Shown: positions 2,580 through 29,300 of the stretch, piece by piece
Position numbering within the stretch: position 1 is the first letter of the stretch
Layout of the letters: each line of letters starts with the position of its first letter
DNA from: a virus
DNA: 64,000 nt
Virus record (IMG/VR): IMGVR_UViG_3300023118_000001
Span: 23,407-87,406 of that record
Direction: 5' to 3' (one strand)
Notes under the pieces: model-generated
The model's database searches: none
What the model saw: only the letters and a program-made list of their open reading frames with translations
What the model was told of the DNA's origin: nothing
Position numbers and translations under genes: made by a program

Positions 2580-3172
2580 AAACACTGATGCTCTATGGCA
2601 GCCTGAAAGAAAAATTCCCTGGCGAGTTCAAGATGGACGTCGCCACACCAGGTGAAGCGATCCGCGCGATGTGCATTCAGTTGCCAGGCTTCGAGGCTGA
2701 GATCAAGGCCGGCAACTGGCGCGTCGTGCGCGGCTCCCTGGAAGGCAACGACGAGGTCAGCGAGGAAGGCCTGCAGATGACGCTGGGTAACCAGAACGAG
2801 CTGCACCTGATCCCGGTCATCGAGGGCGCCAACAGTGGCGCGGGCATGATCATCGTCGGCATCGTGATGATCGTGGCTGCCTTCTTCACCGGTGGTACGT
2901 CGATCGCAGCGTGGGGCGCCATGTCGACCATGCTGGCCGGCGCCGGCCTGGGCATGGTGGTCGGCGGTATCATCGCCAGTACCACCAAGATCCCCGGCGC
3001 AGGAGCGAGCGCCAGCGGCAACGAGAGAGAGGCTGACAAAGCCTCGTTCCTGTTCGACGGCCCAACCAACCAATCGACCCAGGGCGTGGCTGTGCCGCGT
3101 GGCTACGGGCGCATGATGATCGGCAGCATCGTGATCAGCGCCGGTCTCTACGCGGAGCCGATGGCCGTATGA
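2576..3172 (+). CDS. tail assembly protein I
   Basis: LYGSL...EAIRA ubiquitin-like N-terminus, hydrophobic middle, QGVAVPRGYGRMMIGS C-terminus. Confidence 0.9.
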   Translation: MKTLMLYGSLKEKFPGEFKMDVATPGEAIRAMCIQLPGFEAEIKAGNWRVVRGSLEGNDEVSEEGLQMTLGNQNELHLIPVIEGANSGAGMIIVGIVMIVAAFFTGGTSIAAWGAMSTMLAGAGLGMVVGGIIASTTKIPGAGASASGNEREADKASFLFDGPTNQSTQGVAVPRGYGRMMIGSIVISAGLYAEPMAV

Positions 3173-6100
3173 CTATCGATCAGGGTAAACAGATCCGCGC
3201 CGCGGGCAATCGCCATCCGCTGACCATTGAAGGCGAGTGGAAGGTGCACCCGCTGACATCCGCCATTGAGGGTGCCAAGGGCGCCTCCAAACCGCCTGCC
3301 CAGTACATCCCGGTGGAAGCCCCGCAGTCGCTGCGAAGCAAGGCGCGCGGGCGCATCCTCGACCTGCTGGCGCACGGCCCAATCGTGGGGCTGGTCAACG
3401 GGCTGCAGTCGGTATTCCTGGACAGCACGCCGCTGCAGAACCCTGACGGCACGTTCAACTTCAACGGCATCACCGTCCAGACCCGCGAGGGTTACCCTGA
3501 CCAGGCGTACATCCCCGGCTTCACCGCCGTGGAAAACACCATCGACATCTCGGCCGAGGTGAAATTCGCCACGCCGCTGGTGCGGTCGGTGACCAACAAC
3601 GACGCCAACGCGGTGATCGTGACCCTGGCTGTACAGGGGCTGAGTGAGCAGAAAGCCAACGGCGATATGGCCGGTTACCAGGTTGGCTTTTACATCGACG
3701 TGAAAAACTCCAGCGGTGCCTGGACGGTCACGGCGGGTGACACCATCGTCGGCAAAACCACCACCGCCTACCAACGCTCGGTGCGGGTGCCGCTCAATGG
3801 CGTTGGCCCGTTCGATATCCGTGTGCGCCGCGCGCAGCCGGAGTCCAGCTCGGCCAAGATCCAGGACGATCTGTTTTGGGCCATGATGACCGAGGTCATC
3901 GACGCTCGGCTGTCCTATCCGGACAGCGCTCTGGTGGCGCTGGACGCCGACTCGGAACTGTTCGGCTCCAAGATGCCGGCCCGCTCCTACGACGTGAAGC
4001 TCAGCATCATCCGCATCCCGAGCAACTACGACCCGATCAACCGCACCTACAGCGGGTTTTGGGACGGGCAGTTCAAGATGGCGTGGTCGGACAACCCGGC
4101 CTGGTGCTTCTATGACCTGTCGACCCACCCGGTCATCGGCGCCAACAACCAGTCCGTGGACAAATGGTCGCTGTACCGCATCGCGCAGTATTGCGACGAA
4201 ATGGTGCCCAACGGCTACGGCGGCTGGGAGCCACGGTTCACCTGCAACACGCTGTTCGCCAGCCGTGAAGAAGCCATCGTTGTCCTGAACACCCTGGCCA
4301 GTGTTTTCCGTGGCATGGTCTACTGGGGTTCGGACTCGGTCATGGCCGTGGCCGACATGCCAGGCGATGCGCTGAAGCTGGTCACCCCAGCCAACGTCAC
4401 CTCGGACGGGTTCGAGTACGTCGGCACCTCACTGCGCGAGCGTCACTCCGTAGCCGTGGTGATGTGGAACGACCCGAACGATGAATACAAGCAGGTCCCG
4501 GAGCTGTACGAGGACCCTGAAAGCATCCAGTTGTTCGGTTGGAGAGAGACCCAGGTCACCGCAGCGTGCTGCACCAGCCGAGGCCAGGCACGGCGTCTGG
4601 CCAAGTGGATTCTGTACTCGGAACGGATGGAGACGGAGATCGTTTCCTACACCGCGACAGCTGACCACGCTGACCTGCGCCCAGGCGACTACATCAAGAT
4701 CTCCGACCCGGACCGGGCCGGCGCGCGGTATGGCGGCCGGACACTCGATGGCACAGCCAAGGTCATCACCCTGGACAAGGCACCGAAGCCTGGCGAAGTG
4801 GTCGGGACCTGGTATCTGAACTGCGTCATGCCAAGCGGCGTGATCCAGACCCGCGAGGTGCAGGGTTTCAACGGCGACGTGTGCACCCTGAAGCAGGCGT
4901 TCCCGGAAGTGCCGATCAAGGGCGCCGTGTGGGTCTTGTCCAGCGCCTCGCTGGTGACGCCGATGTACCGGGTGACCTCGGTGGTCGAGCAGGATGACGG
5001 GCTGACCTATCAGATCTCGGCGACCGAGCACAACCCGAACAAGTACAACTTCGTCGAGTTCGACCTGCAGCTGCCCGATACACCGGACAGCACCATCCCG
5101 TCTGGCCCGCTGGCCGGCCCTACGCACATCACCGCGTCGTCGTTCAAGTACGTTGCCGGCGGCACTGAGCACCAGGGTCTGACCGTGAGCTGGAGAGGCG
5201 TGGACGACGTCCGCTGCAACGGTTACATCCTCGAGGCGCGCGACCCGAACGACGTCACCTTCCGCACCATCTACTCCGGCGCCGGCCTGAGCGTGGACGA
5301 GAAGGACATCGTCGACGGCGAGTGGATATTCCGCATCAAGGCCACGACCTCCACCGGACGGACCTCGGAGTGGGTGCAACTGACCGTCAACATCGCAGGC
5401 CTGCTGCTGCCCGCGCCGCCCGACAGCATCCAGGTCGACGTCACCACGTTCGAGATCTCGCTGCGCCCGCGCAGCATCTACCCGGGTGCGATGTATGAGT
5501 TCTGGCGCAGTGATGTGCCGCTGACCATGAACATGGTGGAGTCGAACGCCAGGCGTATCGCCATCGGCACCGACCTGGTGGACGTGGGCCTGAAGCCGAA
5601 AACCACCTACTACTACTACGTGCGAGGCACCAACATCTACGGCGTCTCCCAGTTCGTTGGCGCGCAGGGCACCACCCTGTACAACTTCGAGGACATCCTG
5701 GCTGCGCTGGACGAGGAGATTCGCCGACCAGGTGGGCTGTTCGACGAGATGCTGCAGTCGGCCGCAGCCAACGTCGAGGGCGTGAAGAACGCGCTGGACG
5801 CGCTGAAGACCGACATCCGCATGCAGAAGATGCTGGAAACCATCCGGGATCTGTCGACCAAGGCGCAACTGGAAGGCACCGCAGCGCGCAACATGGTCGA
5901 GGAGATCACCCGCCTGACCGAAGACGAAGCGCTGGTGGCGCGGATCACCACGCTGCAGGCTCAGGTCGACGACGACATCACAGCGTCCCTCGAGGAGATG
6001 CAGTTCGCCATGGCGGCGAACAACGAAGCGATCGCTGGCCAGATCCTGACGATCAAGACGCAGATCAACGACGACATCCTGGCTGCCATGCTGGTCGAGC

Positions 6101-6630
6101 AGACTGCTCGGGTCGACGGTGACGGCGCGCTGTCGCAGCGGATTGAAACCCTGTCGGCGTCGACCGAGGACGACATCGCCACGGTCAAGCAAGAGATCAC
6201 CGCGCAGGCCAACTACACCGACGGCGCCGTCGCGCGCGCGGTCACCACCGCCACGGTCAACGGCAAGTCGGCTGTGTTCGGTATCCAGGTGGCGGACGGT
6301 GTTGCGGAGATCGGTGCGATCGCTGACCGGTTCTACGTCTACAACCCAGTCGGCGGCAGCTACACGCTGGCGTTCGCGGTAGTTGACGGGCGCACGGTAA
6401 TCCAGGACGCTCTGATCCGCGAAGCCTCCATCACCATGGCCAAGATCAGCCAGGCGCTGCAGTCCGACAACTACAAGCCGAACGAAATTGGCTGGCGTCT
6501 GACCAAGGCGGGGGTCTTCGAGATGAACGGCAACACACCAGGTGAGGGCAGCCTGGTGCAAACCAACCAGACCATCACCGTGACCGACGGCGCGGGCACA
6601 CCGCGGGTCAAGCTAGGAAGGCTGAATTGA
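3169..6630 (+). CDS. tip attachment / host specificity protein J (central tail fibre)
   Basis: 1153 aa; PSNYDP..R.Y.G.WDG.FK.AWSDNPAW, CTSRGQARRL, FN3-like segments, coiled coil, DUF1983-like C-terminus (ADRF...IQDALIREASITMAKI). Confidence 0.95.
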   Translation: MTIDQGKQIRAAGNRHPLTIEGEWKVHPLTSAIEGAKGASKPPAQYIPVEAPQSLRSKARGRILDLLAHGPIVGLVNGLQSVFLDSTPLQNPDGTFNFNGITVQTREGYPDQAYIPGFTAVENTIDISAEVKFATPLVRSVTNNDANAVIVTLAVQGLSEQKANGDMAGYQVGFYIDVKNSSGAWTVTAGDTIVGKTTTAYQRSVRVPLNGVGPFDIRVRRAQPESSSAKIQDDLFWAMMTEVIDARLSYPDSALVALDADSELFGSKMPARSYDVKLSIIRIPSNYDPINRTYSGFWDGQFKMAWSDNPAWCFYDLSTHPVIGANNQSVDKWSLYRIAQYCDEMVPNGYGGWEPRFTCNTLFASREEAIVVLNTLASVFRGMVYWGSDSVMAVADMPGDALKLVTPANVTSDGFEYVGTSLRERHSVAVVMWNDPNDEYKQVPELYEDPESIQLFGWRETQVTAACCTSRGQARRLAKWILYSERMETEIVSYTATADHADLRPGDYIKISDPDRAGARYGGRTLDGTAKVITLDKAPKPGEVVGTWYLNCVMPSGVIQTREVQGFNGDVCTLKQAFPEVPIKGAVWVLSSASLVTPMYRVTSVVEQDDGLTYQISATEHNPNKYNFVEFDLQLPDTPDSTIPSGPLAGPTHITASSFKYVAGGTEHQGLTVSWRGVDDVRCNGYILEARDPNDVTFRTIYSGAGLSVDEKDIVDGEWIFRIKATTSTGRTSEWVQLTVNIAGLLLPAPPDSIQVDVTTFEISLRPRSIYPGAMYEFWRSDVPLTMNMVESNARRIAIGTDLVDVGLKPKTTYYYYVRGTNIYGVSQFVGAQGTTLYNFEDILAALDEEIRRPGGLFDEMLQSAAANVEGVKNALDALKTDIRMQKMLETIRDLSTKAQLEGTAARNMVEEITRLTEDEALVARITTLQAQVDDDITASLEEMQFAMAANNEAIAGQILTIKTQINDDILAAMLVEQTARVDGDGALSQRIETLSASTEDDIATVKQEITAQANYTDGAVARAVTTATVNGKSAVFGIQVADGVAEIGAIADRFYVYNPVGGSYTLAFAVVDGRTVIQDALIREASITMAKISQALQSDNYKPNEIGWRLTKAGVFEMNGNTPGEGSLVQTNQTITVTDGAGTPRVKLGRLN

Positions 6631-6992
6631 GCAACTGGGGACTGGAAATCAGGAACGGGCAAGGCTTCACAAGCCTTGACCCGGACACCTTCACCGTGAA
6701 GCTGATCGAATCGGTGTGGGTGGGCTGGACCACCATCGACCAAAGTACCGTGATCGACATCCCCATCGAGACCACCTCGGTGGGTGGGGTGTTCGCTGTG
6801 ATCACGATCTACAAGATGATGACAGCGGTGCTGAACCCTGACATGCAGATTTACTTCCAGTCCAACGCGCAGCACCCCCAGTGCCTTCCCGTCGTCGAGG
6901 TTTACCCGGGCATGGTCCGAGTGCGGGGTCAGCCAGTGCCAGGCTCCCGCGCTACCGGTATGATCGTGATCAACCTAATGAAATACCTCTAA
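6627..6992 (+). CDS. putative tail tip accessory protein
   Basis: TTG start coupled to J stop; N-terminal WGLEIRN..G motif typical of small genes after J. Confidence 0.6.
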   Translation: MSNWGLEIRNGQGFTSLDPDTFTVKLIESVWVGWTTIDQSTVIDIPIETTSVGGVFAVITIYKMMTAVLNPDMQIYFQSNAQHPQCLPVVEVYPGMVRVRGQPVPGSRATGMIVINLMKYL

Positions 6993-7000
6993 GGACTACC

Positions 7001-7831
7001 ATGTCATACGGATTCTCGGTGCTGGGGAACAGCGGTCAGCTGGTGATCGACGAAGACTCGATGATCATGACCCAGGCATTCCGTGGCGACATCATCGTCA
7101 GCCCTAACGGGCTGCTCGGGCCTCAGTACGCCTACGGTTACTGCCACGTCACCTACCCTCAGGTGGTCGCCACCGAGTACCCGCCGTTTGTGTTCGCTGT
7201 GCCGACGCCTGGCGTGGTGCCGTGTGGCCTGGGCACGTTCCTGCATCGCGGCGTGGAAGGGGCATGGACCGGGTTCACGGTGCTGGTGACCAAACACATC
7301 TTCGCCCAAGACGGCTCAGCGATGTACGCAGGGTTCAACACTGGTTGGCAGTACCGGGTCGGCAGCTTCGGGCTGCCAGGTGACAACGGCTACGCCGACT
7401 ACGGCCTGCGCATCATGAATGAGTGGAGCGACATCACTTACGACAGCGCCTGGCCCATCATCAAGTTCCGCGGGCTGATGTCGGCCTGGGTCCTGCAGGA
7501 GTTCACTCGCGGGTACGCGCTGAACAACTACTGGGGCGCTGCAGACGTGTCCGGCGACGAAGACTACGTTCTGGCCAAGGGCACGCATGCCTGGGGCTAC
7601 CCTGACCTCACCCACGGGTTCATGCTCTCTGGCATGGGATCGGTGGCCACCACCGTCGACCGTGGATCTTGGGAGGCTCCGGTGAACGCGGTCGTCACCG
7701 TGGGCTTCCCCGACGGTAACCGAGGCAACCTATGGGCGGTTGCTTTCTTCGGCGCTGCACAACACCCTAGCGGTGATCTCAGCGCAATGCGAAACTGGAA
7801 CCTCCTGACGGCCGACTTCTCCGGCACGTAA
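7001..7831 (+). CDS. putative tail tip / receptor-binding protein
   Basis: AAGGA RBS before ATG 7001; repeated YGF/YGL(R)I...D motifs (MSYGFSV.., DYGLRIMNE..ITYDS). Confidence 0.6.
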   Translation: MSYGFSVLGNSGQLVIDEDSMIMTQAFRGDIIVSPNGLLGPQYAYGYCHVTYPQVVATEYPPFVFAVPTPGVVPCGLGTFLHRGVEGAWTGFTVLVTKHIFAQDGSAMYAGFNTGWQYRVGSFGLPGDNGYADYGLRIMNEWSDITYDSAWPIIKFRGLMSAWVLQEFTRGYALNNYWGAADVSGDEDYVLAKGTHAWGYPDLTHGFMLSGMGSVATTVDRGSWEAPVNAVVTVGFPDGNRGNLWAVAFFGAAQHPSGDLSAMRNWNLLTADFSGT

Positions 7832-7844
7832 GCCAACCACAAGG

Positions 7845-8561
7845 ATGCAGGTAATGGCAGCAGCAGACAATTTCCCAGCGTTTAACGCAGCGGTGGCTGA
7901 GCTTACGCTCAAGGTCCAGGCGCTGATCACCGACGTCAGCGGTGCCCAGGCATCCCTCGGCCCTGAGGTGGCAGCAGCCCTGATCAAACTGGAAGCCGCG
8001 ACCACGGCAGCCAACACCGCCGTGGCTGCCGCGACCACCGCGACCCAGGCCGCCGCCGCGCTGACCGCCCTCAAGGCTGAGTTCGACGCCGCCATCATCA
8101 CGGTCGAGGGATTGACCACCGACGTGGGCACGCTGAACGAGCAGGTCGGCGCAGCCATGGCGCTGATGACCACCACGCAGCTTGCGCTGCAGGCCGCGCT
8201 GGATGAAATCGAAGGCATCTCCGGCAACCTCGCCCAGGTGAAAAAGCTCAGCCTGGCAGCGGTCAGCCCGGCTGGCCACGCCTCGGCGGTGATCAACACC
8301 GCGCACAACGTCGGCAACGGCGGGCTGATGCTGCTCGGCGTCTACTGCACCACGTCCACCCCGCTGCAGATGTACGACGTGCTGATCAAGGTCGGCTCGA
8401 CGATCCTGTACGAGGCGGCCGGCGTGCTGGGTGAACTGAAGGATACCTTCTCGCACTTCGCCATCGCCAGCGGCGTGATGGAAGTCACCCTGACCAACCA
8501 GGGCAACGCAGCCGCCGTGCTGACCCCGACCGTCGTCTTCACGGAGCTGGCCCTCGTATGA
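7845..8561 (+). CDS. putative fibre stem/adaptor (Ala-rich coiled coil + beta-rich C-terminus)
   Basis: heptad-like Ala/Thr/Leu-rich N-terminal half; stop overlaps start of the 1037-aa gene. Confidence 0.5.
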   Translation: MQVMAAADNFPAFNAAVAELTLKVQALITDVSGAQASLGPEVAAALIKLEAATTAANTAVAAATTATQAAAALTALKAEFDAAIITVEGLTTDVGTLNEQVGAAMALMTTTQLALQAALDEIEGISGNLAQVKKLSLAAVSPAGHASAVINTAHNVGNGGLMLLGVYCTTSTPLQMYDVLIKVGSTILYEAAGVLGELKDTFSHFAIASGVMEVTLTNQGNAAAVLTPTVVFTELALV

Positions 8562-11500
8562 GCATCAACACCAACCAAAGCTCCAGCTACATCCACCTGG
8601 CCACCGACATCGCCATCGAAGGGCAGAACTTCGACGAGGTTCGCGCGGAGTGGCGAGACATCCAGAACTTCAACCTGCAGAACACCTTCAACTACGCCGG
8701 CTCCAATCAGACCGGCTCGTGGATTGTGGACGGTGGCGACGGCGCGGCACCGGCAGAGACCCGTGAGAAGCGGGCGTTCTGCACCACCGGCAAGGCCAGC
8801 ATCACGTTCACCGGCACCAGTGTCGCGGTGCGTGCATCGCTGAACCCCGGCTGGGGCGTGGCGTACATCCTGATCGATGGGCAGCTGCCCTCCACGATCC
8901 CGGGCCTGGCCAAGTTCAAGGACATCGTCAGCTCCAACGCCGATGACTTCAGCGCCTGGGGCAACGAGTTCCGCGACCAGGTGGTGGCCGACGGTCTGGC
9001 GCCTGGCACGCACACGCTGGACATCCTCTGCTACACCAACAGCCCGACGGAGTTCTTCATCTTCTCCGGGATCAAGGTCTACTCCTACGCCAACAAAGAC
9101 ATCGACATCAAGGCGTTCTCGCTCAAGACCAGCGAGCGAGTGCAGCCCACCAAACTCAAGCTGTGGACCCAAGGCGTCTCGGCTGAGAACGTGGTACTGA
9201 ATTTTGACGCCAAACTTCTGCACCCGACCACACAGACCTCGCTGGGTAACGTGCTGATCGGCGCGTTGAACGCCAACACAGCCTACGAGCTGTCGTTCGC
9301 CCCCAACCTGCTGGGCACGGAGCCATCGGGGATCATCACCCTGCCGATTGTGATGACAGCCAACGTGGGTGACCCGGACGGCACCAACGTCGGCGAGGTG
9401 GCGCTGGATCTGACCCACACCTCGGACCAGATCACCTACGTCAGCACCAACTGGTGGGAAGACCCAGCCACGCCGACCCTGGCGAGCATGCACGCGACTG
9501 CATCCAAGCAGGCCTGGCTGTCCTTCAACCACACCGGTGACCTGCTCAAGCTGCTGGGCTACGTGGACTTCGGCGCGGCCACGGTGCGCGTGCTGAAGGA
9601 CGCTGTCGAGCGCAACCTGACCTCTTGGAACGTCGGCCAGACCGTGATCAACATCGCCTCCACTGTCGGCATCACTGTCGGCATGATGGCGATCGGTCGC
9701 GGCATTCCTGACAACGTCACAGTGACCGCGGTAACGCCGACCAGTGTGACATTGTCGGCGGCGGTGACCATCAAGGTCACCAACGGCGCCATCGCCTTCG
9801 GCACCGTGCACGGCGTCCTCGACATGAACGAGAACAACGAGGCGCTGCAGGGCACCATGCAGATGCGTCAGCTGGCTGGCTTTGGCGCAACCTACAAAGG
9901 TCGCCTGGTGTTGCAGCCGACGGCGAACAAGACCTTCGGCGTGAACATGATCTACACCCGCCGGACCTACACCTACACCATCGTCACCGAGACGCTTAAC
10001 GCCAAGTTCAGCATCTCCCAGGTCAACCACCTGCCGATCTCCGGCGTCAAGCTGGACGGCGGCAAGATCGCCTACATCGACCCGAACAAGAACGTCTACA
10101 CGCCGCTGGCCAACCCGCCAATCGACAACCGCAACATCAGCGAGGTCAGCATCGAGTACCGGTTCCCGACGTTCCTGTGCTGCTACACAGCCGGCAACAA
10201 GGAGCTGTTCAAGCAGTACGACGTGGTGATCACCGACCCGATGGCGCTGAGCCGCAAGGAAGTGAAAGAGCTGCAGGACCTCGGCATCCAGGTGATCAAC
10301 TACGTGTCCTTCGGCGAAGAGGACGGCGTGCTGTCGAACATTTGGGACAACACCTCGGAACAGGGTCCGCACACTGGCGACGGCACAGGGCCTGGCGGTT
10401 ACGCCGGCTACTACCTGAAGGGTGGCTACGACATGGGCGAGTTCTCGGAGTGCACCAACGACCGCCAGCGCTACGAAGGCGTGAAGGCGTGTGCCTTGAG
10501 CAACCCGAAGTATTACCAGGGCGTGGGGCGCTGCTCGAAGGCCTGTGGCAACGATTCGCGCACCGGGTACAGCGAGTACGAGACCGGGGGCAGCTGCGCC
10601 GCGGGCTTCACCAAGGACAACAACTGGATTCGTGACGCCTCCACAGCGTGCTCGAACAACGCCTGCCCGCAGTTCTCGCCGATGCACAGCGGCTGCACCC
10701 AGTACGTCCAGGCCGAAGGCGTGTGGGGTCAGGATTTCTCAATCCTCGATCACAACGCGCCGGACGAGAACGGGATTTGGGACTCCTTCTACGTCGACGC
10801 GGTGAAGCGCGGGCCTGGCAGCTGGTTCAATAGGCTGCAGGATTACTACCTGCCGCTGGTGTTCAACGAGCCGGTTCCCTACGACGAAGTCCTGACCGTG
10901 GCTCAGCACCCGCTGACCGATGGCTCGCTGATCTACGGCATCCTGATGACCCACGCGCCGATCGATGATCATGAACCCTTCAGCGTGCAGCATGTGGCCA
11001 GCGGCAAGTTCCTGATCCCAGGCCAGCACTTCTCCTACGACCAGAAGATCGGCACCATCATCCTGGCGTTCAACAGCGGTGTGCTGGAGCCGGAAGCGCC
11101 GCCTAACCCTGCCGTCGGCGCGCAGTACCGCGTGAAGTATTCCAAGCGCGGCCTGGGCAGCGACGGGGTGTTCATGGACACCGTCGACACCGTGGACATC
11201 TACCCGCGCGAGGACTACCTGCAGGGGGCGGCTGACCTGATCAACGACCTCAAGCTGCTGTGGCCTGACCGCGCGTTCTGCTCCAACCGTGGGTTCACCA
11301 TCTACGACCGCATGATCCACAGCTGCACCTGGATCATGACCGAGTCGGTGTTCAGCCATTACCACTTCGGCGAGGACTACTACAGCGAGGTCGACGAGGC
11401 TGCGGCTGTGTGGAACGAAGAAGTGGCGGCGATGATTCAGGAGCTTCGCAAGAAGCACACCTTCGACGTGGTCTGCTTGAACTACGCGCCTAACGGCCCT

Positions 11501-11671
11501 GAGGGCGATGCGCTTCGCGCGCGCGTGTACGAGAAGTGTCTGGAGCTGGGCTGGCTGCCCTGGCTGTCGACTATCCTGCTGAACGATCCGCTGCCCAACC
11601 GCCCATTCAATACCGGCAAGGGCTACATCCGGACCAACAACTGGAGGAAGATCAATGTCCGCAATCTATGA
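8558..11671 (+). CDS. tail-module protein with N-terminal beta-sandwich modules and C-terminal PelA/GH114-GH166-like TIM-barrel glycoside hydrolase
   Basis: motifs YDVVITDP, INYVSFGE, DGVFMDTVD, NRGF, MTESVF, CLNY, GWLPW in the order found in alpha-1,4-polygalactosaminidases. Confidence 0.75.
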   Translation: MSINTNQSSSYIHLATDIAIEGQNFDEVRAEWRDIQNFNLQNTFNYAGSNQTGSWIVDGGDGAAPAETREKRAFCTTGKASITFTGTSVAVRASLNPGWGVAYILIDGQLPSTIPGLAKFKDIVSSNADDFSAWGNEFRDQVVADGLAPGTHTLDILCYTNSPTEFFIFSGIKVYSYANKDIDIKAFSLKTSERVQPTKLKLWTQGVSAENVVLNFDAKLLHPTTQTSLGNVLIGALNANTAYELSFAPNLLGTEPSGIITLPIVMTANVGDPDGTNVGEVALDLTHTSDQITYVSTNWWEDPATPTLASMHATASKQAWLSFNHTGDLLKLLGYVDFGAATVRVLKDAVERNLTSWNVGQTVINIASTVGITVGMMAIGRGIPDNVTVTAVTPTSVTLSAAVTIKVTNGAIAFGTVHGVLDMNENNEALQGTMQMRQLAGFGATYKGRLVLQPTANKTFGVNMIYTRRTYTYTIVTETLNAKFSISQVNHLPISGVKLDGGKIAYIDPNKNVYTPLANPPIDNRNISEVSIEYRFPTFLCCYTAGNKELFKQYDVVITDPMALSRKEVKELQDLGIQVINYVSFGEEDGVLSNIWDNTSEQGPHTGDGTGPGGYAGYYLKGGYDMGEFSECTNDRQRYEGVKACALSNPKYYQGVGRCSKACGNDSRTGYSEYETGGSCAAGFTKDNNWIRDASTACSNNACPQFSPMHSGCTQYVQAEGVWGQDFSILDHNAPDENGIWDSFYVDAVKRGPGSWFNRLQDYYLPLVFNEPVPYDEVLTVAQHPLTDGSLIYGILMTHAPIDDHEPFSVQHVASGKFLIPGQHFSYDQKIGTIILAFNSGVLEPEAPPNPAVGAQYRVKYSKRGLGSDGVFMDTVDTVDIYPREDYLQGAADLINDLKLLWPDRAFCSNRGFTIYDRMIHSCTWIMTESVFSHYHFGEDYYSEVDEAAAVWNEEVAAMIQELRKKHTFDVVCLNYAPNGPEGDALRARVYEKCLELGWLPWLSTILLNDPLPNRPFNTGKGYIRTNNWRKINVRNL

Positions 11672-11945
11672 TTTCAGCAACCCGTTCCTGCGGAACATGC
11701 CGATGGTGGCGATCGTGCGCGCGACCAGCAAGAAGAATGGCGAGGTGACCACCACGCCGGACACCCAGTGCCGACGGATCTTTTTCAGGGTCAGTAATAA
11801 CCGGGTGTTCCCGGCGCCGGCCGGGCAGCAGGAGATCATGCACGAGGGTAAGGCGATGGATGCGTTCTACGGCTTCGATAACCTCCGGGAGTTCAACCCG
11901 GAGGAGATCAACGCCTCACACGACGCCAACCCTAAGCCTCGGTAG
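11655..11945 (+). CDS. hypothetical protein (possible chaperone or partner of upstream gene)
   Basis: GGAGG RBS, overlaps upstream gene end, phage-like codon usage. Confidence 0.6.
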   Translation: MSAIYDFSNPFLRNMPMVAIVRATSKKNGEVTTTPDTQCRRIFFRVSNNRVFPAPAGQQEIMHEGKAMDAFYGFDNLREFNPEEINASHDANPKPR

Positions 11946-12369
11946 GCGCGGGCGGTGCGTGCTCAGCAGTGGCAGTGGCGATGTCAATGAAGCGCGCACC
12001 GTGGACCTGAGTCAGGATGCCGTCGGCGATGATATCGCCGTGCTTGATTTGTACGATTGATTTGCCTTCATTCATCAGTTCGATTGTGACTTCCCCGTCA
12101 AAGGCGCTGTCCAACAAACCGACCCGGGTGCCGTGGTGGTTCATGCTGGACAGATCCTGCGCGCGGCGAGGATAAATCTCGATGATCCAGCTGTTCGGGA
12201 CCAGGACTTTAAGTCCGGTGCGGAACAGTGCTTTGCCGCCTGGGCCAATGAATTCGCCTTCGGGGTTTTCTACCAGGGCAGAGAATTGAAAGAACGCTGC
12301 ACCGCCCGTGTTGTTGATCGGGAGAGTTGCATCGGGGTGGAGTTTCTCGGTTTGCATTGCCACAATCAT
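11932..12369 (-). CDS. dUTPase-fold protein with degenerate catalytic motifs
   Basis: KLHPDATLP, RTGLKV, GLLDSAFDGEV, IKHGDIIA recognisable; AAGGA RBS; motif V missing. Confidence 0.75.
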   Translation of the reverse strand: MIVAMQTEKLHPDATLPINNTGGAAFFQFSALVENPEGEFIGPGGKALFRTGLKVLVPNSWIIEIYPRRAQDLSSMNHHGTRVGLLDSAFDGEVTIELMNEGKSIVQIKHGDIIADGILTQVHGARFIDIATATAEHAPPAPTEA

Positions 12370-12513
12370 GCGGGGTAGTCCTTGCAGATGGAAAACGCAA
12401 TGATGGCGTGGACTGCAGCGTGACACAAGACCGACCGGCCTGTGCCGCCTTATGTTGTTATAGGGGTGGCAAACAGCTATCCTGCGTCACACGTTATAGG
12501 GAAATAGCCGCTG

Positions 12514-22931: not shown

Positions 22932-24076
22932 AGTGGCTCGTACCAGCACTTGGCTGTGGCGATGTTGGGGATGCCGTCCGGCGTGAAGCCGAAGTGGGCG
23001 ATGGTCAGCATGCGGTCCATGTTCTCGCCGCGCACCAGGGCTTCCCACTCGGCGTGCTTCTCAGCTGCATTGCCGTGGGCGGTGGCCTTGGCAGTCTTGA
23101 TGCCAGCTGGCGTATCAACTTCGTAGATGAACTTCGGCACCTGGTAGGTGACGCCCTTCACTACCTGCTGCTCAGCCAGTTCCCAGGCCACGACCTTCAC
23201 TTCGAAGTCGGTGAAGTCCTTCACCTTGACGCAGTGCTTGGTGCGCTTGCCGTCGCGGTAGCCTGCACGGCCCCAGCGCAGGATGCTGCCCTCGTAGCCT
23301 TCAGCGACCCACTTGCGGTGCAGGACCATGGCTTCGGCCATGCTGCGAACCCGCACGGTCTCGACCAGCTGGATGCGGATGTCGAGGTTGGTGGTGTTGG
23401 CGAAGGCTTGCTCGACAGCCGCGAATCGCTCCTCGAACGGCTTGTCGCTGACCGAGTCGTAGATGCAGTAGGTCAGCTGCAGCGAGTCTTCGCGCGGCTT
23501 GGTGATCAGGCTGCCGATAGCCTGCAGGGTCATGCCGTGGACGTACAGCTCACCGTCAAGGTGCAGGTCAGCGAACGCCGCCTGCGCATCCAGGGCGTCC
23601 TGAATGTGCTGGACGTTGTGGGCCTTACCGCCGCGGCTGTAGATGAACCCCTCTTTCAGGCAGCGGTGACCGTCGAACTTACGCTGCAGGAAGGCGGTGT
23701 CCCAGTCGACCTCGTCCATGTTTACGTCTTGCATCTTCTCAGCCAGTTGCGGCTTCTTCTTTCCCAGGCCGTTGGTGACTGGCGCCGCCGCGTCGGCGAT
23801 GTCTTCGACGTATCCGCCGAGGATTTGCTTCTTCCAGCGGGACTCGGCTTCAGCGATGGCCTGCTGAAAGTCGGAGGTCTCGTTGGCCTTGCCTTTGTTC
23901 TTACCTTTGACCGAGGCGATCTTCTCAGTTACAGCCCCTCCTTCTGACTTGGCGAAGGTGATAACCAGCCGGGCACTGTCATCTTCCAAGCCTTGGGCAT
24001 CTACCTGCCACCAGCCAATGGTCTTGCCGAGGTTTTTGTACAAGCGTTTGGTGGAGAGGAGTACGTTGTTGGTCAT
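22928..24076 (-). CDS. lig: ATP-dependent DNA ligase
   Basis: KFDGHRC adenylation motif, LDGELY, YEGSILR, KVKDF. Confidence 0.92.
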   Translation of the reverse strand: MTNNVLLSTKRLYKNLGKTIGWWQVDAQGLEDDSARLVITFAKSEGGAVTEKIASVKGKNKGKANETSDFQQAIAEAESRWKKQILGGYVEDIADAAAPVTNGLGKKKPQLAEKMQDVNMDEVDWDTAFLQRKFDGHRCLKEGFIYSRGGKAHNVQHIQDALDAQAAFADLHLDGELYVHGMTLQAIGSLITKPREDSLQLTYCIYDSVSDKPFEERFAAVEQAFANTTNLDIRIQLVETVRVRSMAEAMVLHRKWVAEGYEGSILRWGRAGYRDGKRTKHCVKVKDFTDFEVKVVAWELAEQQVVKGVTYQVPKFIYEVDTPAGIKTAKATAHGNAAEKHAEWEALVRGENMDRMLTIAHFGFTPDGIPNIATAKCWYEPL

Positions 24077-24630: not shown

Positions 24631-25262
24631 CAGTGACCTTCCAGCTCGGACACCAGATCCATCAGCTTCATGTCGAAGTCGTACAGCGACCCGTCATTGA
24701 CGATGGTGTGGGTGACGAAGTGGCGGCTGATACCCCGCTCGCTTTCGTGGTTAACGATGCCCACATTGGCCACCGCTGCCTTCAGCTTTTCAGTCACCGT
24801 GCTGTGCTCCAGAGGTCTCACGATCTCCAGGATGACACCGCCGTGGATCTGCAGGTACTCAGCCTCGCTGTCGAAGCGGACGTCGCTGAGGACCATCCCC
24901 TTGATCAGATCCTCGCCGTTCACCTTCAGGTTAGAGAACCTGCTAGAGTCAGCCTCGAACGGGCATCCAGCTTCGACCCACTTGCGCTTCTTCTCCACCA
25001 GGTTGACCCACACCTGGGGGTTCATCAGCTCGCGACCCCACTCAGTGCCGAGGGTTTGCATCATCACCCGGTACGACTTGCAGGTTTCAGGGCAGATGCC
25101 CGAGCGATCGCCTTCGTGGAAGTGGTCGCCGAAGACCGACTTCAGCATGGTCTTCAGCGGTTCCGCGAAAGCGTATTTGTACAGGTCCATATGCCTGGCC
25201 AGATAGGCAGCTGCGTGGTCTTTACCGGACCTGGCCAGTCCGGTCACGCCGATCAGCTTCAT
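24630..25262 (-). CDS. deoxynucleoside monophosphate kinase
   Basis: GLARSGKD, FAEPLK, R..MQTLGTEWGR, DVRF..E, HESE. Confidence 0.92.
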   Translation of the reverse strand: MKLIGVTGLARSGKDHAAAYLARHMDLYKYAFAEPLKTMLKSVFGDHFHEGDRSGICPETCKSYRVMMQTLGTEWGRELMNPQVWVNLVEKKRKWVEAGCPFEADSSRFSNLKVNGEDLIKGMVLSDVRFDSEAEYLQIHGGVILEIVRPLEHSTVTEKLKAAVANVGIVNHESERGISRHFVTHTIVNDGSLYDFDMKLMDLVSELEGH

Positions 25263-26005
25263 ATCGCCTGCGCCAAGCGGAGGCACAGCGCTTCACGAAG
25301 CTCGGCCGAGAACTCCATGTCGCACTTGTCGCTAAGCAGCCATTTGCAGTAATCCTGCTTCAGGTTTTTCACCTTGCTGCCCTTCTCCTTGCCGAAGCCG
25401 ATCTTCATTTCAAGGGTGCCGTCGTCACCCTTCATCCAGACCATCAGCTCGTCGAGGCTGTCGACCTTGGCCCAGCCGAACAGCGGCTTGATGCACTTGA
25501 GGGTGGCGTCGACGTCGACCGAGGCGTCGTGAGCGCCATTCATGGGCTCGCCCATGATGTGCTCATAGAACGCGGTCAGCTTGGCGCTGGGCCACTTGTG
25601 TTCGGTCTTCAGCTTACGGGCTGCCTTCATCAGGTCAATCGACTTCGGCGCGCGGAAACCTACCCGGGCAGCGATGCGGTTGTCGAAGGTGGCGCTGTTG
25701 TAGCCGATGACCGCGTCCAGGTTCATCTCGTTGACCGTGGCCATCTGCTCGGCCAGGTACGGTTCCCACGGCTTTTCATCCAGCAGGTCATGGGCGTAGT
25801 AGCCATGGACCTTGGAGGCCTCGGGGTGAATCTCCATACCAGGGTTCAGCAGCGTGAGGTCCTGGTCGTGGATGTCGTAGCTGCCATCCTGTTGCAGGGT
25901 CACGATCCACAGGGCTGACTGCAGAACGCCGCAACTGCCAGCGTCCACCCCGGTGGTTTCATAGTCGTGAGCCAGCGCTCTGACACTTTGTCCATTGAAG
26001 CTCAT
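25259..26005 (-). CDS. DnaQ/DEDDh 3'-5' exonuclease (ExoX-like)
   Basis: DYETTG, YNSATFD, AHDASVD; C-terminal FGK.KG...Y..W. Confidence 0.88.
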   Translation of the reverse strand: MSFNGQSVRALAHDYETTGVDAGSCGVLQSALWIVTLQQDGSYDIHDQDLTLLNPGMEIHPEASKVHGYYAHDLLDEKPWEPYLAEQMATVNEMNLDAVIGYNSATFDNRIAARVGFRAPKSIDLMKAARKLKTEHKWPSAKLTAFYEHIMGEPMNGAHDASVDVDATLKCIKPLFGWAKVDSLDELMVWMKGDDGTLEMKIGFGKEKGSKVKNLKQDYCKWLLSDKCDMEFSAELREALCLRLAQAI

Positions 26006-26008
26006 GGG

Positions 26009-26362
26009 TTATTCCTTACCGGTTGAGAAAAATTGTTTGTGAATGGCCGGCCAGCGGCGCCGGAACATCTCGACGCGGCGGGCCATCAGGCTTTCGTTGT
26101 GCTTGGCGTCCCGCAGCTGTTTACGCAGTTCCTCAAGTTCGTCTTCCAACTCCTTGACGTAGCTGTCGTTGTAGCTGCGATCCTCACAGCGTAAATCCGC
26201 CGAGGTGCCGACGAAGAAAGGCTCGCCAGGCCGTTTGATCCCCATCGGGATCGCCTTGCCTGGCTCGATGGTGTTGACGGGGCCCTGGATGGGCGGATCA
26301 GGGAGGCTGCTGACAGCCTCCTTGAATTTCTCCCACCAGTCGTTAATCGGCGACGACTTCAA
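26009..26362 (-). CDS. hypothetical protein with C-terminal coiled coil
   Basis: likely TTG start with GAGGAGG RBS inside the pol 3' end; start uncertain. Confidence 0.5.
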   Translation of the reverse strand: MKSSPINDWWEKFKEAVSSLPDPPIQGPVNTIEPGKAIPMGIKRPGEPFFVGTSADLRCEDRSYNDSYVKELEDELEELRKQLRDAKHNESLMARRVEMFRRRWPAIHKQFFSTGKE

Positions 26363-29300
26363 ACTCCACCTCCTCTTCCCCGTCTTCATCCATCTCGACA
26401 TAACCCGCCTTGCGGATCGGATCGAACGGCTGCAGAAGGTCAACTTCCCAAATGCTGCGGGCTTCCTCAATGGAGCGAGCAACGAAGGCCTCGACGTTTT
26501 CACGGCTGATGTTACGACCCAGCTCGTGCACTCTACCCCAGTCCGGCCCAATGGAGAACTCCGGTACTTGGCGGACTTTGTGCCCTGGCGGGGTCGACTC
26601 TTCCATGAAGCGGCCGACCTCTTGGCAGTAGTCGTACACGTCGTCCTTGTGAACCCAGGCCACCACTTCGTCGTAGATCGGAGCAAAGAACACCATGTTC
26701 AGTCTGTCCATGATGCCGCTCTCGGCGATCCGGGTCAGCACGATGCGCAACATCTGCGCTGCAGTGCCCTGGATCGTCGCGTTGGTGCCCTGGCGGTGCT
26801 GACGGGCGACCTTGCCGCTGTCCTCGCTGAAGATGTCGTTGGTGGCGTGACGCTTGGTCCCGAAGGCTGTCAGCGTGAAGCCGTTCTTGGTCATGAATTC
26901 GCCGGTCTCGGCCTGCCACGGACGAATCCGGGTGTACAGGTCGAAGGTGCCATCGAGCAGCTTCTTGGCTTCTTCCACCGGCACGATCAGGTTGCGAGAC
27001 AGCGTGCCAGCGCCAGCGCCGTAGGCCATACCGAAGTTTACGGTCTTGGCCTTGCCGCGGATGGCGACGGTGATCTTGTTCAGCTTGTGGTCCGGGTCAT
27101 CCTTGGCCTCGACGAAGTCCTCATAGGACATTTTCGCGATGCCGGAGCCTGTCATGCTGTGCAAGTCTTTCTCGTTGGCCGGGTCGTAGACCGACATCAT
27201 CACCGGATCGTTGGCGAGGTTCGCCATCAGCCGGATCTCTTGCCCGTTGAAGTCGATCGCCACGCAGACGTGGTCCGGGGTTGGCGGAATGAAGATGGTC
27301 CGCATGACCTTGCCTTCGCCGCGCTTGGCCACCTGCAGGATGTTCATCGAGCTGCCAGTTGGCCGGGTGGTGTCGGTGCCTGCGTCGGTGATGATCGGGT
27401 GGACCTTGCCGTCGCGGTGACGCCACATCGGGTACTTGACGTGGTACAGGCTGCAGCGGGTGTTGGCCGACTTCACTCGACGAAGGATGGTCAGCGCATC
27501 ACGCTGCCAGCAGTCCTCTAGGACGTCGTTCGCCAGCGCCGTGAGGATAGCCTGCTCGTCGGTAGACGGGCCTGCTTCCTTGATGCCGACGGCCATCCGG
27601 CCCTTACCCACCTGCTTGCCGCGCAGCTTGACCGGGATACCGATCTTGCAATACAGCAGGTGCTGCATCTGCACCGGGCTGCCGACGTTCAGCGGGTCGC
27701 CAAACGCCACGATGCTCGGCTTGATGCCGGCCGTGCGCTGCACCAGGTTGCCGAACTGCTCGTACAGCATCTCGGCCATGTCCACCTTCTTCCAGTCCAG
27801 GTCGTCCTGTGAAGCCTCGGCCTTCTTGCGCAGATCGGTGATCTTCATCGCGCCGCCGGTGACCGCCGAAGACATGAGCTTGACGAATTCACGCTGTGCA
27901 TCATTGAGCGGCCATTCATCCTCGAAGCCCGCGCAGCCCGCCTCGTAGTACCACTCGCTGATCGCCTTCTGTGTCAGCTTCTCCAGAGGCGGCAGGCCCA
28001 GGGCTTCGATAGCCGGTGCCAGCTGCTTCTCGGTGAAAGCGAACGACGGCATGACCATCTCTTCTCGGTACGGGGTGTATTGGCAGGCTGCTTCCAGCTT
28101 CTTGCGCCACTCAGCGACCTTGGTGCCGGCCACTTCGGTGTCGCCGTCGGCCTTCTTCTTCGCCGAGCGGAAGATGTAATCCTTCTCGGCGTCGATCAGC
28201 GTCTTGCAGCCCGCGGTGATGTTGCCGGTGACGTTCTTCTCCAGGATGGCGCGAAGCTCCAGCATGCCCTCCTCGATGGTCTTCAGGTCCTGGGCATGAA
28301 TGCGCTTCTGCGCGGCCCAGTTCATGTCGACGCCGGCCACGTAGGCCCGCTGCAGCACCTCGGTAGGCTTCACAGCCCACCGCTGGTAGAAGTCCCACTG
28401 CCCGTCCAGCTTGAGCATCAGCTTCAGCAGGTCGTGCAGGTGACCGGTCACCAGGCTGTCGTCGGTGCCGTAGGTGAAGACTTCGTCAGCCGACAGCTCA
28501 CACATCATGCTGACGCCTTGGCCGTCGTTACCGGCTGCCAGGGTGTCCTGGAACGATGTCTGCTCATACGCCAGGTAGTTCAGGGAGATCGCCTTGAGGC
28601 CTGCCTCCATGTTCTCGTCGTAGAAGCGCTGCATCATCCGGGTGTCCTGGATGTCGGTCAGCCAGGTGTTCAGGTTGGTCTGCGTGACCACGCCTTCGAA
28701 CAAAGCGTTGTGCGCCACCCGCTGGGTGTGCTTGCCGGCGAACTCAAGGATCTCCAGCACCACTGCCTTGTCCACGTTGTGCGAGTCGCGGTGATCTACC
28801 GGGATGTAGATCACGTTTTCCAGGTGGCGGCCGAACTGGAACGAAGCGCCGGCCAGCTCCTGGCTGAGCATGTCGACGAAGGGGCCGGACTTGGCGATAC
28901 GGAAATCGCGGATCGGGTCCTTGTCGGAGGATTCATAGTCGAACGCGGTGAGGTCGCCGGCCTTGATCTCGGCGAAGATCGCCTCCTTCATGTCTTCCCA
29001 ATTGGTGGCGTCGACAATCATCGGCACCGGCATCAGGTGGCTGTACTCAGCGTCCCACATATCCTCGCAGCCGACTTCCTTCAGGCACTCGTACAGCAGC
29101 GCCGGGTTCGGTACGCGCTTGTGGACCTTGGGCTTGACCAGCTTGCGCAGCCGTGGCTTCCAGCACAGTTCAGGCTTCAGGTTGGCCAGGCGCCAGCCCA
29201 TCCGCCAGTCGCTGAACGCGTTGCGCAGCTTGATCAGATTCTTGTCGCCGGACGCTTCGATGGATTCGTCCAGCAGGTCAGTGTTACCGGTGTTGACTAT

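Follow-up and report, generated by a model that had tools for sequence, protein, structure and literature searches.

A tail-associated phage protein with a PelA/GH114/GH191-type barrel: a candidate Pel hydrolase

What would a protein with the barrel of a biofilm-polysaccharide hydrolase be doing in the tail region of a phage genome? The question is raised by a 1037-residue open reading frame (ORF; P0001, here called the enzyme) in a 64,000-nucleotide stretch of viral DNA (the window), which covers positions 23,407 to 87,406 of IMG/VR record IMGVR_UViG_3300023118_000001; this virus record is complete at 87,406 bp and bounded by direct terminal repeats, and the window makes up its right-hand 64 kb. 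An earlier reading of the sequence alone (the original prediction) had proposed a tail-module protein with a hydrolase domain of the PelA/GH114-GH166 type. In our analysis the best explanation is a tail-borne hydrolase that binds and cuts Pel, to which we assign a probability of about 0.55 (this is the figure for the weakest link, the substrate, and is not multiplied out over the other links).

We modeled the enzyme with AlphaFold2 from a 54-sequence alignment of homologs (31-87% identity), obtaining a mean pLDDT (predicted local distance difference test) of 89.6 with no segment below 50. By this model the C-terminal half folds as a (beta/alpha)8, or TIM, barrel of the PelA/GH114 type, made up of residues 529-589, 741-770 and 866-1015. 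In a Foldseek search of the PDB, ranks 1-11 were taken by the PelA hydrolase, full-length PelA, glycoside hydrolase family 191 (GH191) and TM1410, with Ega3 at rank 30; the top match was 5tcb (E = 7.6e-11, TM-target 0.79). Alignment with VIA-align gave a Z score of 26.2 for the PelA hydrolase 5tcb (root mean square deviation [RMSD] 2.5 Å, 248/253 residues, 21% identity; residues 536-1017 of the model are the part that aligns with PelA), 25.5 and 25.4 for the GH191 structures 9eux and 2aam (TM1410), 24.6 for PelA 9cgy, 23.5 for Env-GH191 9ep5 and 19.6 for Ega3 6oj1, against about 18 for the next unrelated family, the GH168 fucanases. Overlays with PelAh, TM1410 and Ega3 have RMSDs of 2.2-2.9 Å over 225-248 residues, and identities to GH191 and Ega3 in the structural alignments are 14-19%. 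The GH114/GH166-like barrel of the original prediction, and the Foldseek check that it had proposed, were thus borne out. Because the Z scores differ by less than 1, GH166 and GH191 are tied as nearest neighbors; in favor of GH166, PelA is the sole clan member matched by sequence, yet at 21% identity and with this structural tie. The beta-helix catalytic domain of a classical trimeric tailspike is absent from the model, which consists of beta-sandwiches and a TIM barrel instead. A TIM-barrel depolymerase had been called unusual, and the term is apt: such barrels are rare but recognized, accounting for 10/984 depolymerase-like phage proteins in the reported DepoScope set.

Sequence searches connect the enzyme to PelA over the same regions. 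A phmmer search of all PDB sequences with the single enzyme sequence returned PelA only (5tcb, E = 7e-4), and with a profile of the 54 homologs the PelA hydrolase was the only related enzyme (E = 5.6e-9), matched over both barrel halves (positions 545-592 and 861-1002) with a long gap between them; PDB chains of GH191 and GH114 (Ega3) gave no sequence match at E <= 1 to either the single sequence or the profile. Against 1.84 billion representative proteins, phmmer found 279 matches at E <= 1e-3, 96 at E <= 1e-10 and 43 at E <= 1e-30, the weaker ones covering residues ~866-1010 only. All 10 distant matches that we tested carry PF03537 (Glyco_hydro_114) above the Pfam cut-off, and three of them resemble PelA both in length (917-960 residues) and in the N-terminal position of this domain. 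The enzyme itself matches no family above threshold in Pfam and NCBIfam scans, and hmmscan finds no PF03537 match at E <= 1; a six-frame search with PF03537 gives 11.7 bits (E = 0.006, cut-off 27) and touches residues 529-589 only. We attribute this low score to the insertions that split the barrel; for the homologs P0041 and P0049 the scores are 25.6 and 23.3 bits. The only PHROGs family for the enzyme is annotated 'unknown function' (E = 1.1e-218). A chance ORF is ruled out by the 43 representative clusters at E <= 1e-30 and by the confident fold, and recent capture of a host's own pelA by the identity of ~21%.

Two side observations concern the wider family. P0080, a metagenomic homolog of 1296 residues, is a tandem two-barrel form, in which a second barrel (residues 1005-1239, PF03537 at 48.4 bits) takes the place of the hub domain found in other long homologs. 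Stand-alone GH114-type genes occur in phages too, in a cluster of ~252-residue PF03537 proteins that is 58% viral (Uroviricota); its Atlas look-alike score to the enzyme is only 0.77, and we treat it as a lead only.

The barrel retains the catalytic pair predicted from PelA. Seven motifs had been read from the sequence, and all are present in the order given: YDVVITDP (residues 554-561), INYVSFGE (580-587), DGVFMDTVD (869-877), NRGF (910-913), MTESVF (927-932), CLNY (973-976) and GWLPW (998-1002). They lie at nucleotides ~10217-11563, in agreement with the earlier estimate of about 10150-11600. Residues D555, Y582, E587, E588, D874, D877, D880, N910, R911, E929, N975 and Y976 are kept in 54/54 homologs of 31-87% identity, so these motifs are not due to chance. 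The glutamate of MTES pairs with the site mutated in the E218A structure 5tsy, which fixes the numbering offset and thereby equates the first aspartate of FMDTVD with PelA D160. The acidic catalytic residues proposed for the FMDTVD and TES motifs accordingly align with PelA D160 and E218, and all 54 homologs keep both. A double mutant of PaPelA at these positions (D160A/E218A) is reported to show no hydrolysis, and Pel biofilms are not dispersed by the equivalent D149A and E207A variants of the Pseudomonas thermotolerans enzyme (PMC12022489); the clan mechanism is described as retaining, with an Asp nucleophile and a Glu acid/base (PMC12054363). The net charge of residues 529-1037 is -25 (family median -19, range -43 to -7) and that of residues 866-1015 is -13; judged by net charge only, this acidic catalytic half fits the electronegative clefts reported for clan enzymes that cleave Pel or galactosaminogalactan (GAG; PMC12054363). 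Very probably, then, the enzyme is an active retaining glycosidase of the PelA/GH114/GH191 clan, whose members are endo-alpha-1,4-(N-acetyl)galactosaminidases.

A second line of evidence places the enzyme with the tail. DNA from the tape measure protein (TMP) gene to J is ~79% identical to that of Pseudomonas phage PMBT3, a siphovirus with an 87-kb genome whose hosts are P. grimontii and P. fluorescens-group strains, and the source of the enzyme is a complete 87-kb Pseudomonas-type siphovirus. On the 5' side of the enzyme gene lie the end of the TMP gene, genes like lambda M, L, K and I, and then J, whose product is 65% identical to the PMBT3 'tail fiber protein'. The original prediction had placed the enzyme gene in translational coupling after J. 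Coupling holds, in that the enzyme ATG overlaps the stop codon of ORF 7845-8561 (ATGA); a position directly after J does not, three ORFs intervening (6627-6992, 6881-7831 and 7845-8561). The ORF at 11655-11945, in turn, begins 17 nucleotides before the enzyme stop, behind GGAGG.

Relatives of the enzyme repeat this setting. The gene stands after J in the window, in the Andreprevotia prophage locus L007 and in locus L028, after collagen-like tail-fiber genes in L020 and L027, and within the tail module in the window, L007, L028 and L005. Homologs in Selenomonas and Lachnospiraceae prophages are ~1300 residues long, the additional C-terminus consisting of PF09931 ('baseplate hub protein, N-terminal attachment domain', E about 1e-51) and PF09356. 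This hub fusion is present in five of the eight long homologs tested (L005, L003, L031, L033 and P0071), and the hub domains are absent from the other three (P0044, P0057 and P0080). In L005 the hub-fused gene sits between TMP/DUF2460 genes and K-like/J-like genes. Tail association, as originally predicted, is therefore supported both by the neighboring tail genes and by the fusion to a baseplate hub in relatives; for the window enzyme itself, the structural link would run through the stem protein with which it is co-inherited. Taken together, we think it likely that the enzyme is tail-borne. As a side observation, the 203-residue ORF that precedes the hub-fused enzyme (L005 9369-9980, with equivalents in L003 and L029-L033) is a DUF2460 protein (E = 4.4e-68) whose family, phrog_2913, is labeled 'glycoside hydrolase' in PHROGs; this label may mislead, since in its position between tape measure and hub the protein resembles a distal tail protein of the kind found in RcGTA-type tails.

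The polymer on which such an enzyme would act is suggested by the breadth of the family. Homologs occur in phages and prophages of Pseudomonas, Ralstonia, Comamonas, Andreprevotia, Selenomonas and Lachnospiraceae, and the conservation of the whole protein across these hosts favors a polymer common to several phyla over a serotype-specific antigen as the target. Pel loci are likewise distributed across phyla. We found pelG (PF16933, 204-535 bits) in 4/4 bacterial genomes with a full-length prophage copy of the enzyme, namely Andreprevotia, two Selenomonas metagenome-assembled genomes and one Lachnospiraceae metagenome-assembled genome (three lineages), and in 0/1 genomes with only a distant partial match (G005, L009). 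In three of the four, pelG has a PelA-like host gene (PF03537) at a distance of no more than about 3-10 kb, so that these can be taken as real pel loci; in the remaining genome, pelG sits on a contig of 2 kb. Counting the seed genomes, pelG is present in 60/151 genomes of the G002 family, 6/39 of the G003 family and 16/151 of the G001 order, and in 1/14 control genomes. With the seeds removed (59/150, 5/38 and 15/150), a rough product of the base rates is ~0.005 for the three lineages and ~0.002 with the second Selenomonas included, relatedness being ignored. The one control with PelG is Thermotoga maritima, which also matches PF03537 (TM1410, now GH191), a hint that this organism may have a Pel-like system. 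According to published reports, full-length PelA homologs occur in Ralstonia, among other taxa (PMC12022489), P. protegens (fluorescens lineage) makes Pel biofilms, and Env-GH191 prefers Pel (PMC12054363). The support for Pel is circumstantial, consisting of pelG co-occurrence in four host genomes and an acidic catalytic domain, and on balance we lean toward Pel, or a Pel-like alpha-1,4-galactosamine polymer, as the substrate.

These elements combine into the following proposed mechanism. Two carbohydrate-binding-like beta-sandwiches, together with linker sandwiches, would carry the C-terminal barrel, in which D874 would act as nucleophile and E929 as acid/base in a retaining reaction and whose substrate-binding face would be enlarged by two conserved insertions. 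A translationally coupled cassette of three genes (a fiber stem with a conserved knob, the enzyme and a small ORF) would make a part of the tail tip, with the enzyme most likely mounted there as, or on, a side fiber; in the Selenomonas and Lachnospiraceae relatives it is instead joined directly to the baseplate hub. At the cell or biofilm, the enzyme would bind and cut cationic Pel (partly deacetylated alpha-1,4-N-acetylgalactosamine [GalNAc]), thereby opening a way to the cell surface, using Pel as a first receptor, or both. That the protein is at once a clan glycosidase, tail-borne and directed at Pel is, as a conjunction, somewhat short of an even chance.

Several observations weigh against a tail-borne Pel hydrolase. 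The co-occurrence with pelG amounts to four genomes from three lineages, two of them Selenomonas, where pelG is common (~39%). Within the G002 family the enzyme profile is found in 1/151 genomes, the seed itself, so a 2x2 test of enzyme against pelG has no power there, and the pelG data as a whole describe the hosts of relatives. PelA specificity is not safely transferable at 21% identity over the structural alignment and with a score below the PF03537 gathering threshold (11.7 versus 27 bits); FsGH114, a clan member, is reported to have no activity on isolated Pel. The stem knob could be the receptor binder and the enzyme merely co-inherited with it, and a protein that is assembled in the cytoplasm would not be expected to have eight invariant cysteines. 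Finally, a virion gel study of RsoM2USA identified only 10 abundant bands, and the ORFs named for them do not include the homolog.

Part of this evidence would suit the same tail-borne, active barrel directed at another surface glycan, such as an O-antigen, a capsule or some other exopolysaccharide, perhaps with GalNAc or galactosamine among its sugars, a reading that we consider rather unlikely. Identity to characterized enzymes is low (21% to PelA, 14-19% to GH191 and Ega3), the two large family-specific insertions on the substrate face could redefine specificity (which also counts against Pel), specificity varies within the clan (FsGH114 is reported as inactive on Pel, and Sph3 as acting on acetylated GAG), and PMBT3 has a GH18 barrel in the same genomic slot, showing that the slot serves varied glycan targets. 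Serotype-specific depolymerases usually diverge, however, whereas here identities of 31-46% go together with invariant catalytic and many acidic residues; this conservation spans phages of Pseudomonas, Ralstonia, Andreprevotia, Selenomonas and Lachnospiraceae, pointing to a cross-phylum polymer such as Pel, and pelG is present in all four prophage hosts. The fusion of five of the eight long homologs to a baseplate hub is difficult to reconcile with a soluble 'auxiliary' enzyme outside the virion that would loosen the matrix at lysis for progeny escape or act outside the host, as are the constant adjacency and translational coupling to a fiber-stem protein with a conserved knob, the location of the gene inside tail modules of three phage morphotypes and ~500 N-terminal residues of beta-sandwiches that weakly resemble minor tail and virion structural proteins of phages in BFVD. 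The RsoM2USA bands, the viral GH114 genes (30 viral operational taxonomic units [vOTUs]) that a rumen virome preprint reads as auxiliary metabolic genes, and the short viral GH114 cluster (252 residues, 58% viral, score 0.77, a lead only) speak for such a soluble enzyme, which we nonetheless judge improbable.

A virion-associated peptidoglycan hydrolase that pierces the cell wall is hardly credible: PMBT3 does have in this slot a protein with the annotation 'peptidoglycan hydrolase YvbX', and the peptidoglycan hydrolase Cwp19 is among the more distant matches to the barrel, but the nearest structures are all alpha-galactosaminidases (Z 23.5-26.2 versus 14.8 for Cwp19), and separate lysis genes lie downstream in the window, the syntenic region of PMBT3 having a lysozyme. 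Enzyme-derived binding modules are known in phages, and the original prediction had allowed that the protein either digests or binds its polymer. We regard a lectin-like receptor-binding protein, its barrel kept for binding without cutting, as very improbable all the same, given that both catalytic residues, NRGF and the flanking acids are invariant in 54/54 homologs down to 31% identity and that pure binders usually lose such residues. A tail-borne hydrolase of Pel thus remains our preferred explanation. A broader extension of it is more tentative, and we would put it at slightly less than an even chance: the enzyme would be the founding example of phylum-spanning, Pel-tropic phage tail enzymes, with Pel as a phage receptor and a new glycoside hydrolase family in the GH114/166/191 clan, and its cassette would move among siphoviruses, a 47-kb Pseudomonas phage and jumbo Ralstonia myoviruses, occurring in hub-fused form in Firmicute and Negativicute prophages.

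Table 1. Positions in the window of the enzyme gene, its predicted domains and catalytic codons, and associated genes
Feature	Residues	Positions	Strand	Remarks
Central tail fiber J		3169..6630	+	Closes the conserved gene set of the lambda-like tail-tip module; phrog_31, E = 1.9e-290
Fiber-stem protein, cassette gene 1		7845..8561	+	238 residues; helical N-terminal ~126 residues and C-terminal ~110-residue beta-sandwich knob
Enzyme ORF (P0001)		8558..11671	+	ATG start, open, 1037 residues; phrog_37372
Jelly-roll domain	12-180	8591..9097	+	CE2 esterase N-terminal domain 6hfz: Z 13.2, RMSD 2.8, 131 aligned
Second beta-sandwich, CBM36/XynJ-CBM-like	280-470	9395..9967	+	2dcj Z 13.4, 1w0n Z 12.7
Barrel strands beta1-beta3 (YDVVITDP, INYVSFGE)	529-589	10142..10324	+	Aligns to PelA chain positions 39-86
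Insertion 1	590-740	10325..10777	+	~151 residues, 8 invariant Cys; gap in PelA alignments
Barrel strand and helix (FYVDAV...SWFNRLQDYYLPLVF)	741-770	10778..10867	+	Model strand 743-746, helix 756-769
Insertion 2, beta-rich	771-865	10868..11152	+	~95 residues; model strands 773-863; no PelA counterpart
Barrel second half with catalytic residues	866-1015	11153..11602	+	Profile 861-1002 versus PelA chain 130-267
D874 codon, predicted nucleophile (first D of FMDTVD)	874	11177..11179	+	Aligns with PelA D160 (FLDTLD)
E929 codon, predicted acid/base (MTES)	929	11342..11344	+	Aligns with Glu of 5tcb, Ala of 5tsy (E218A)
Partner ORF, cassette gene 3		11655..11945	+	96 residues; GGAGG 6 nt before ATG; 17-nt overlap with enzyme end

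The features on which this interpretation draws are located in Table 1. The strings cited earlier for N-terminal beta-sandwich modules are present (ITFTGTSV at residues 81-88, IDG at 106-108 and GLAPGTHTL at 146-154), and the modules themselves appear in the model, one like the jelly roll of CE2 esterases and one like carbohydrate-binding module (CBM) family 36. The first, which also has a weak Pfam match to CE2_N (15.7 bits against a cut-off of 27.9), is by its modeled fold a candidate carbohydrate-binding module; the second aligns with 2dcj and 1w0n over about 110 residues at RMSDs of 2.4-2.5. The N-terminus is polar on reading (MSINTNQSSSYIHLATD...), and this is the sole basis for the suggestion that the protein has no signal peptide. 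Within the barrel, the assignment of the short middle segment to one specific PelA strand and helix is our own reading of the model.

Both insertions are family features. Insertion 1 has a median length of 151 residues and a median of eight cysteines across the family (in the enzyme C632, C645, C659, C663, C680, C698, C703 and C713), and is modeled with pLDDT about 85-93 and little regular secondary structure; the median length of insertion 2 is 93 residues. Insertion 1 starts right past the third strand (residues 578-584, YVSFGE), and a ligand-binding insertion after beta3 is reported for GH114, GH166 and GH191 (PMC12054363). By analogy, insertion 1 occupies the topological site of the clan's beta3 ligand-binding insertion, and it may share that function. 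Its eight cysteines could form disulfides or metal sites, either of which would be unusual in a cytoplasmically assembled phage protein.

The genes on both sides of the enzyme travel with it. The stem protein is modeled with a pLDDT of 65, with helices in residues 6-126 and eight strands in residues 130-236; its N-terminal ~126 residues are probably a coiled coil, and the helix bundle of the monomer model is then probably an artefact. The C-terminal sandwich has generic jelly-roll matches only (a GOLD domain at Z 10.5, XepA at 9.9 and a satellite virus coat protein at 9.8). A related stem C-terminus of ~110 residues lies directly 5' of the enzyme in SCYZ1 (orf53, annotated 'particle protein'), phiRSL1 (ORF188) and the loci L007, L020, L023 and L026-L028, on N-termini that vary from a coiled coil (window) to collagen-like repeats (L020, L027 and L007) to part of a 1091-residue protein (phiRSL1). 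The partner ORF has a weak match to phrog_30416 only, and its N-terminal ~40 residues are 45-49% identical to the post-enzyme ORF in SCYZ1 (orf51), phiRSL1 (ORF190) and three Andreprevotia loci. Stem, enzyme and partner recur together in SCYZ1, phiRSL1, Andreprevotia prophages and IMG/VR contigs, and judged by these sequence relationships they form a portable three-gene cassette. A match to 'ORF189' in PMC5468394 proved to be another phage's ABC transporter and was rejected.

In Andreprevotia chitinilytica, scaffold 16 carries a third, partial enzyme copy with a partner ORF (L008 9737-10768 and 10770-11000). This copy corresponds to residues ~787-1030 of the enzyme at 41% identity and lies ~16 kb downstream of the host pelG (G001:C16:75619-76977); a host PelA-like gene at 64653-65285 is apparently on the same contig as pelG, on the assumption that C16 is scaffold 16. 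In the window, a 164-residue antisense ORF (11932-12426, minus strand) lies directly past the cassette.

Comparison with PMBT3 suggests how the cassette is exchanged. PMBT3 keeps J and the next ORF (65% and 46% identity, respectively) and replaces exactly the stem-enzyme-partner cassette with a 272-residue ORF and a 1018-residue protein ending in a GH18 barrel (AUM59625, 'peptidoglycan hydrolase YvbX'; L034 9771-12827, record 24770-27826). This protein is like the enzyme in its slot two ORFs after J, its similar size and its C-terminal TIM-barrel glycoside hydrolase, and differs in the barrel, which is GH18 (PF00704, 31.1 bits); no sequence similarity between the two is detectable (best BLASTP E = 0.13). 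In this phage group, large glycoside-hydrolase proteins seem to be swapped for one another at the post-J slot.

Neither the fold nor the clan nor the concept of a tail-borne depolymerase is new; what the enzyme adds is a branch of the PelA/GH114/GH191 clan that is distinct and well conserved, is associated with tails and has an architecture of its own. We found neither a PelA-like phage tail enzyme nor a Pel-directed phage enzyme in the literature searched, which covered few subscription journals. A rumen virome preprint found GH114 in 30 vOTUs, more often than any other viral glycoside hydrolase among its 'auxiliary metabolic genes', and reads it as serving feed digestion; these genes may be the hub-fused form that we see in rumen-type Selenomonas. 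If the enzyme is indeed a tail-borne Pel hydrolase, it and its relatives would be the first Pel-directed phage enzymes and would explain why GH114 genes are the commonest glycoside hydrolase genes in the rumen virome. They would also be natural Pel dispersers and could serve without redesign as stable anti-biofilm enzymes that bring their own carbohydrate-binding modules, and would add a structurally distinct branch (two insertions and an eight-cysteine module) to a poorly characterized clan.

Among known systems, the closest is PelAh of Pseudomonas (GH166; 5TCB and 9CGY), which has the same barrel, the same Asp and Glu positions and an acidic catalytic domain. PelA, however, is a periplasmic, signal-peptide-bearing biosynthetic protein fused to deacetylase domains, whereas the phage enzyme would be made in the cytoplasm, places ~530 residues of beta-sandwiches in front of the barrel, interrupts the barrel with two conserved insertions and is 21% identical. 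GH191 (TM1410 of Thermotoga maritima and Env-GH191; 2AAM, 9EUX and 9EP5) is as close in fold, within 1 Z unit of the PelA match, and the enzyme shares with GH191 and GH114 (Ega3, 6OJ1) a predicted Asp nucleophile, a Glu acid/base and an insertion after beta3 (as described in PMC12054363); the GH191 and GH114 enzymes are small, secreted proteins of about 250-470 residues without phage context. On the phage side, Psl-dependent Pseudomonas phages (Clew-1, PaStL1 and PaStL2) and an alginate-degrading phage enzyme have been described; in these, as proposed here, the virion gains access to the cell by binding or degrading an exopolysaccharide of the biofilm matrix, with other polymers as targets and unrelated enzymes. 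Hubs of the phiJL001 gp84 type (PF09931 and PF09356) form one polypeptide with the enzyme in five of the eight long homologs tested; unlike these fusions, the enzyme of the window has no hub domain, and its gene stands behind those for a lambda-type M-L-K-I-J tip and for a separate stem protein.

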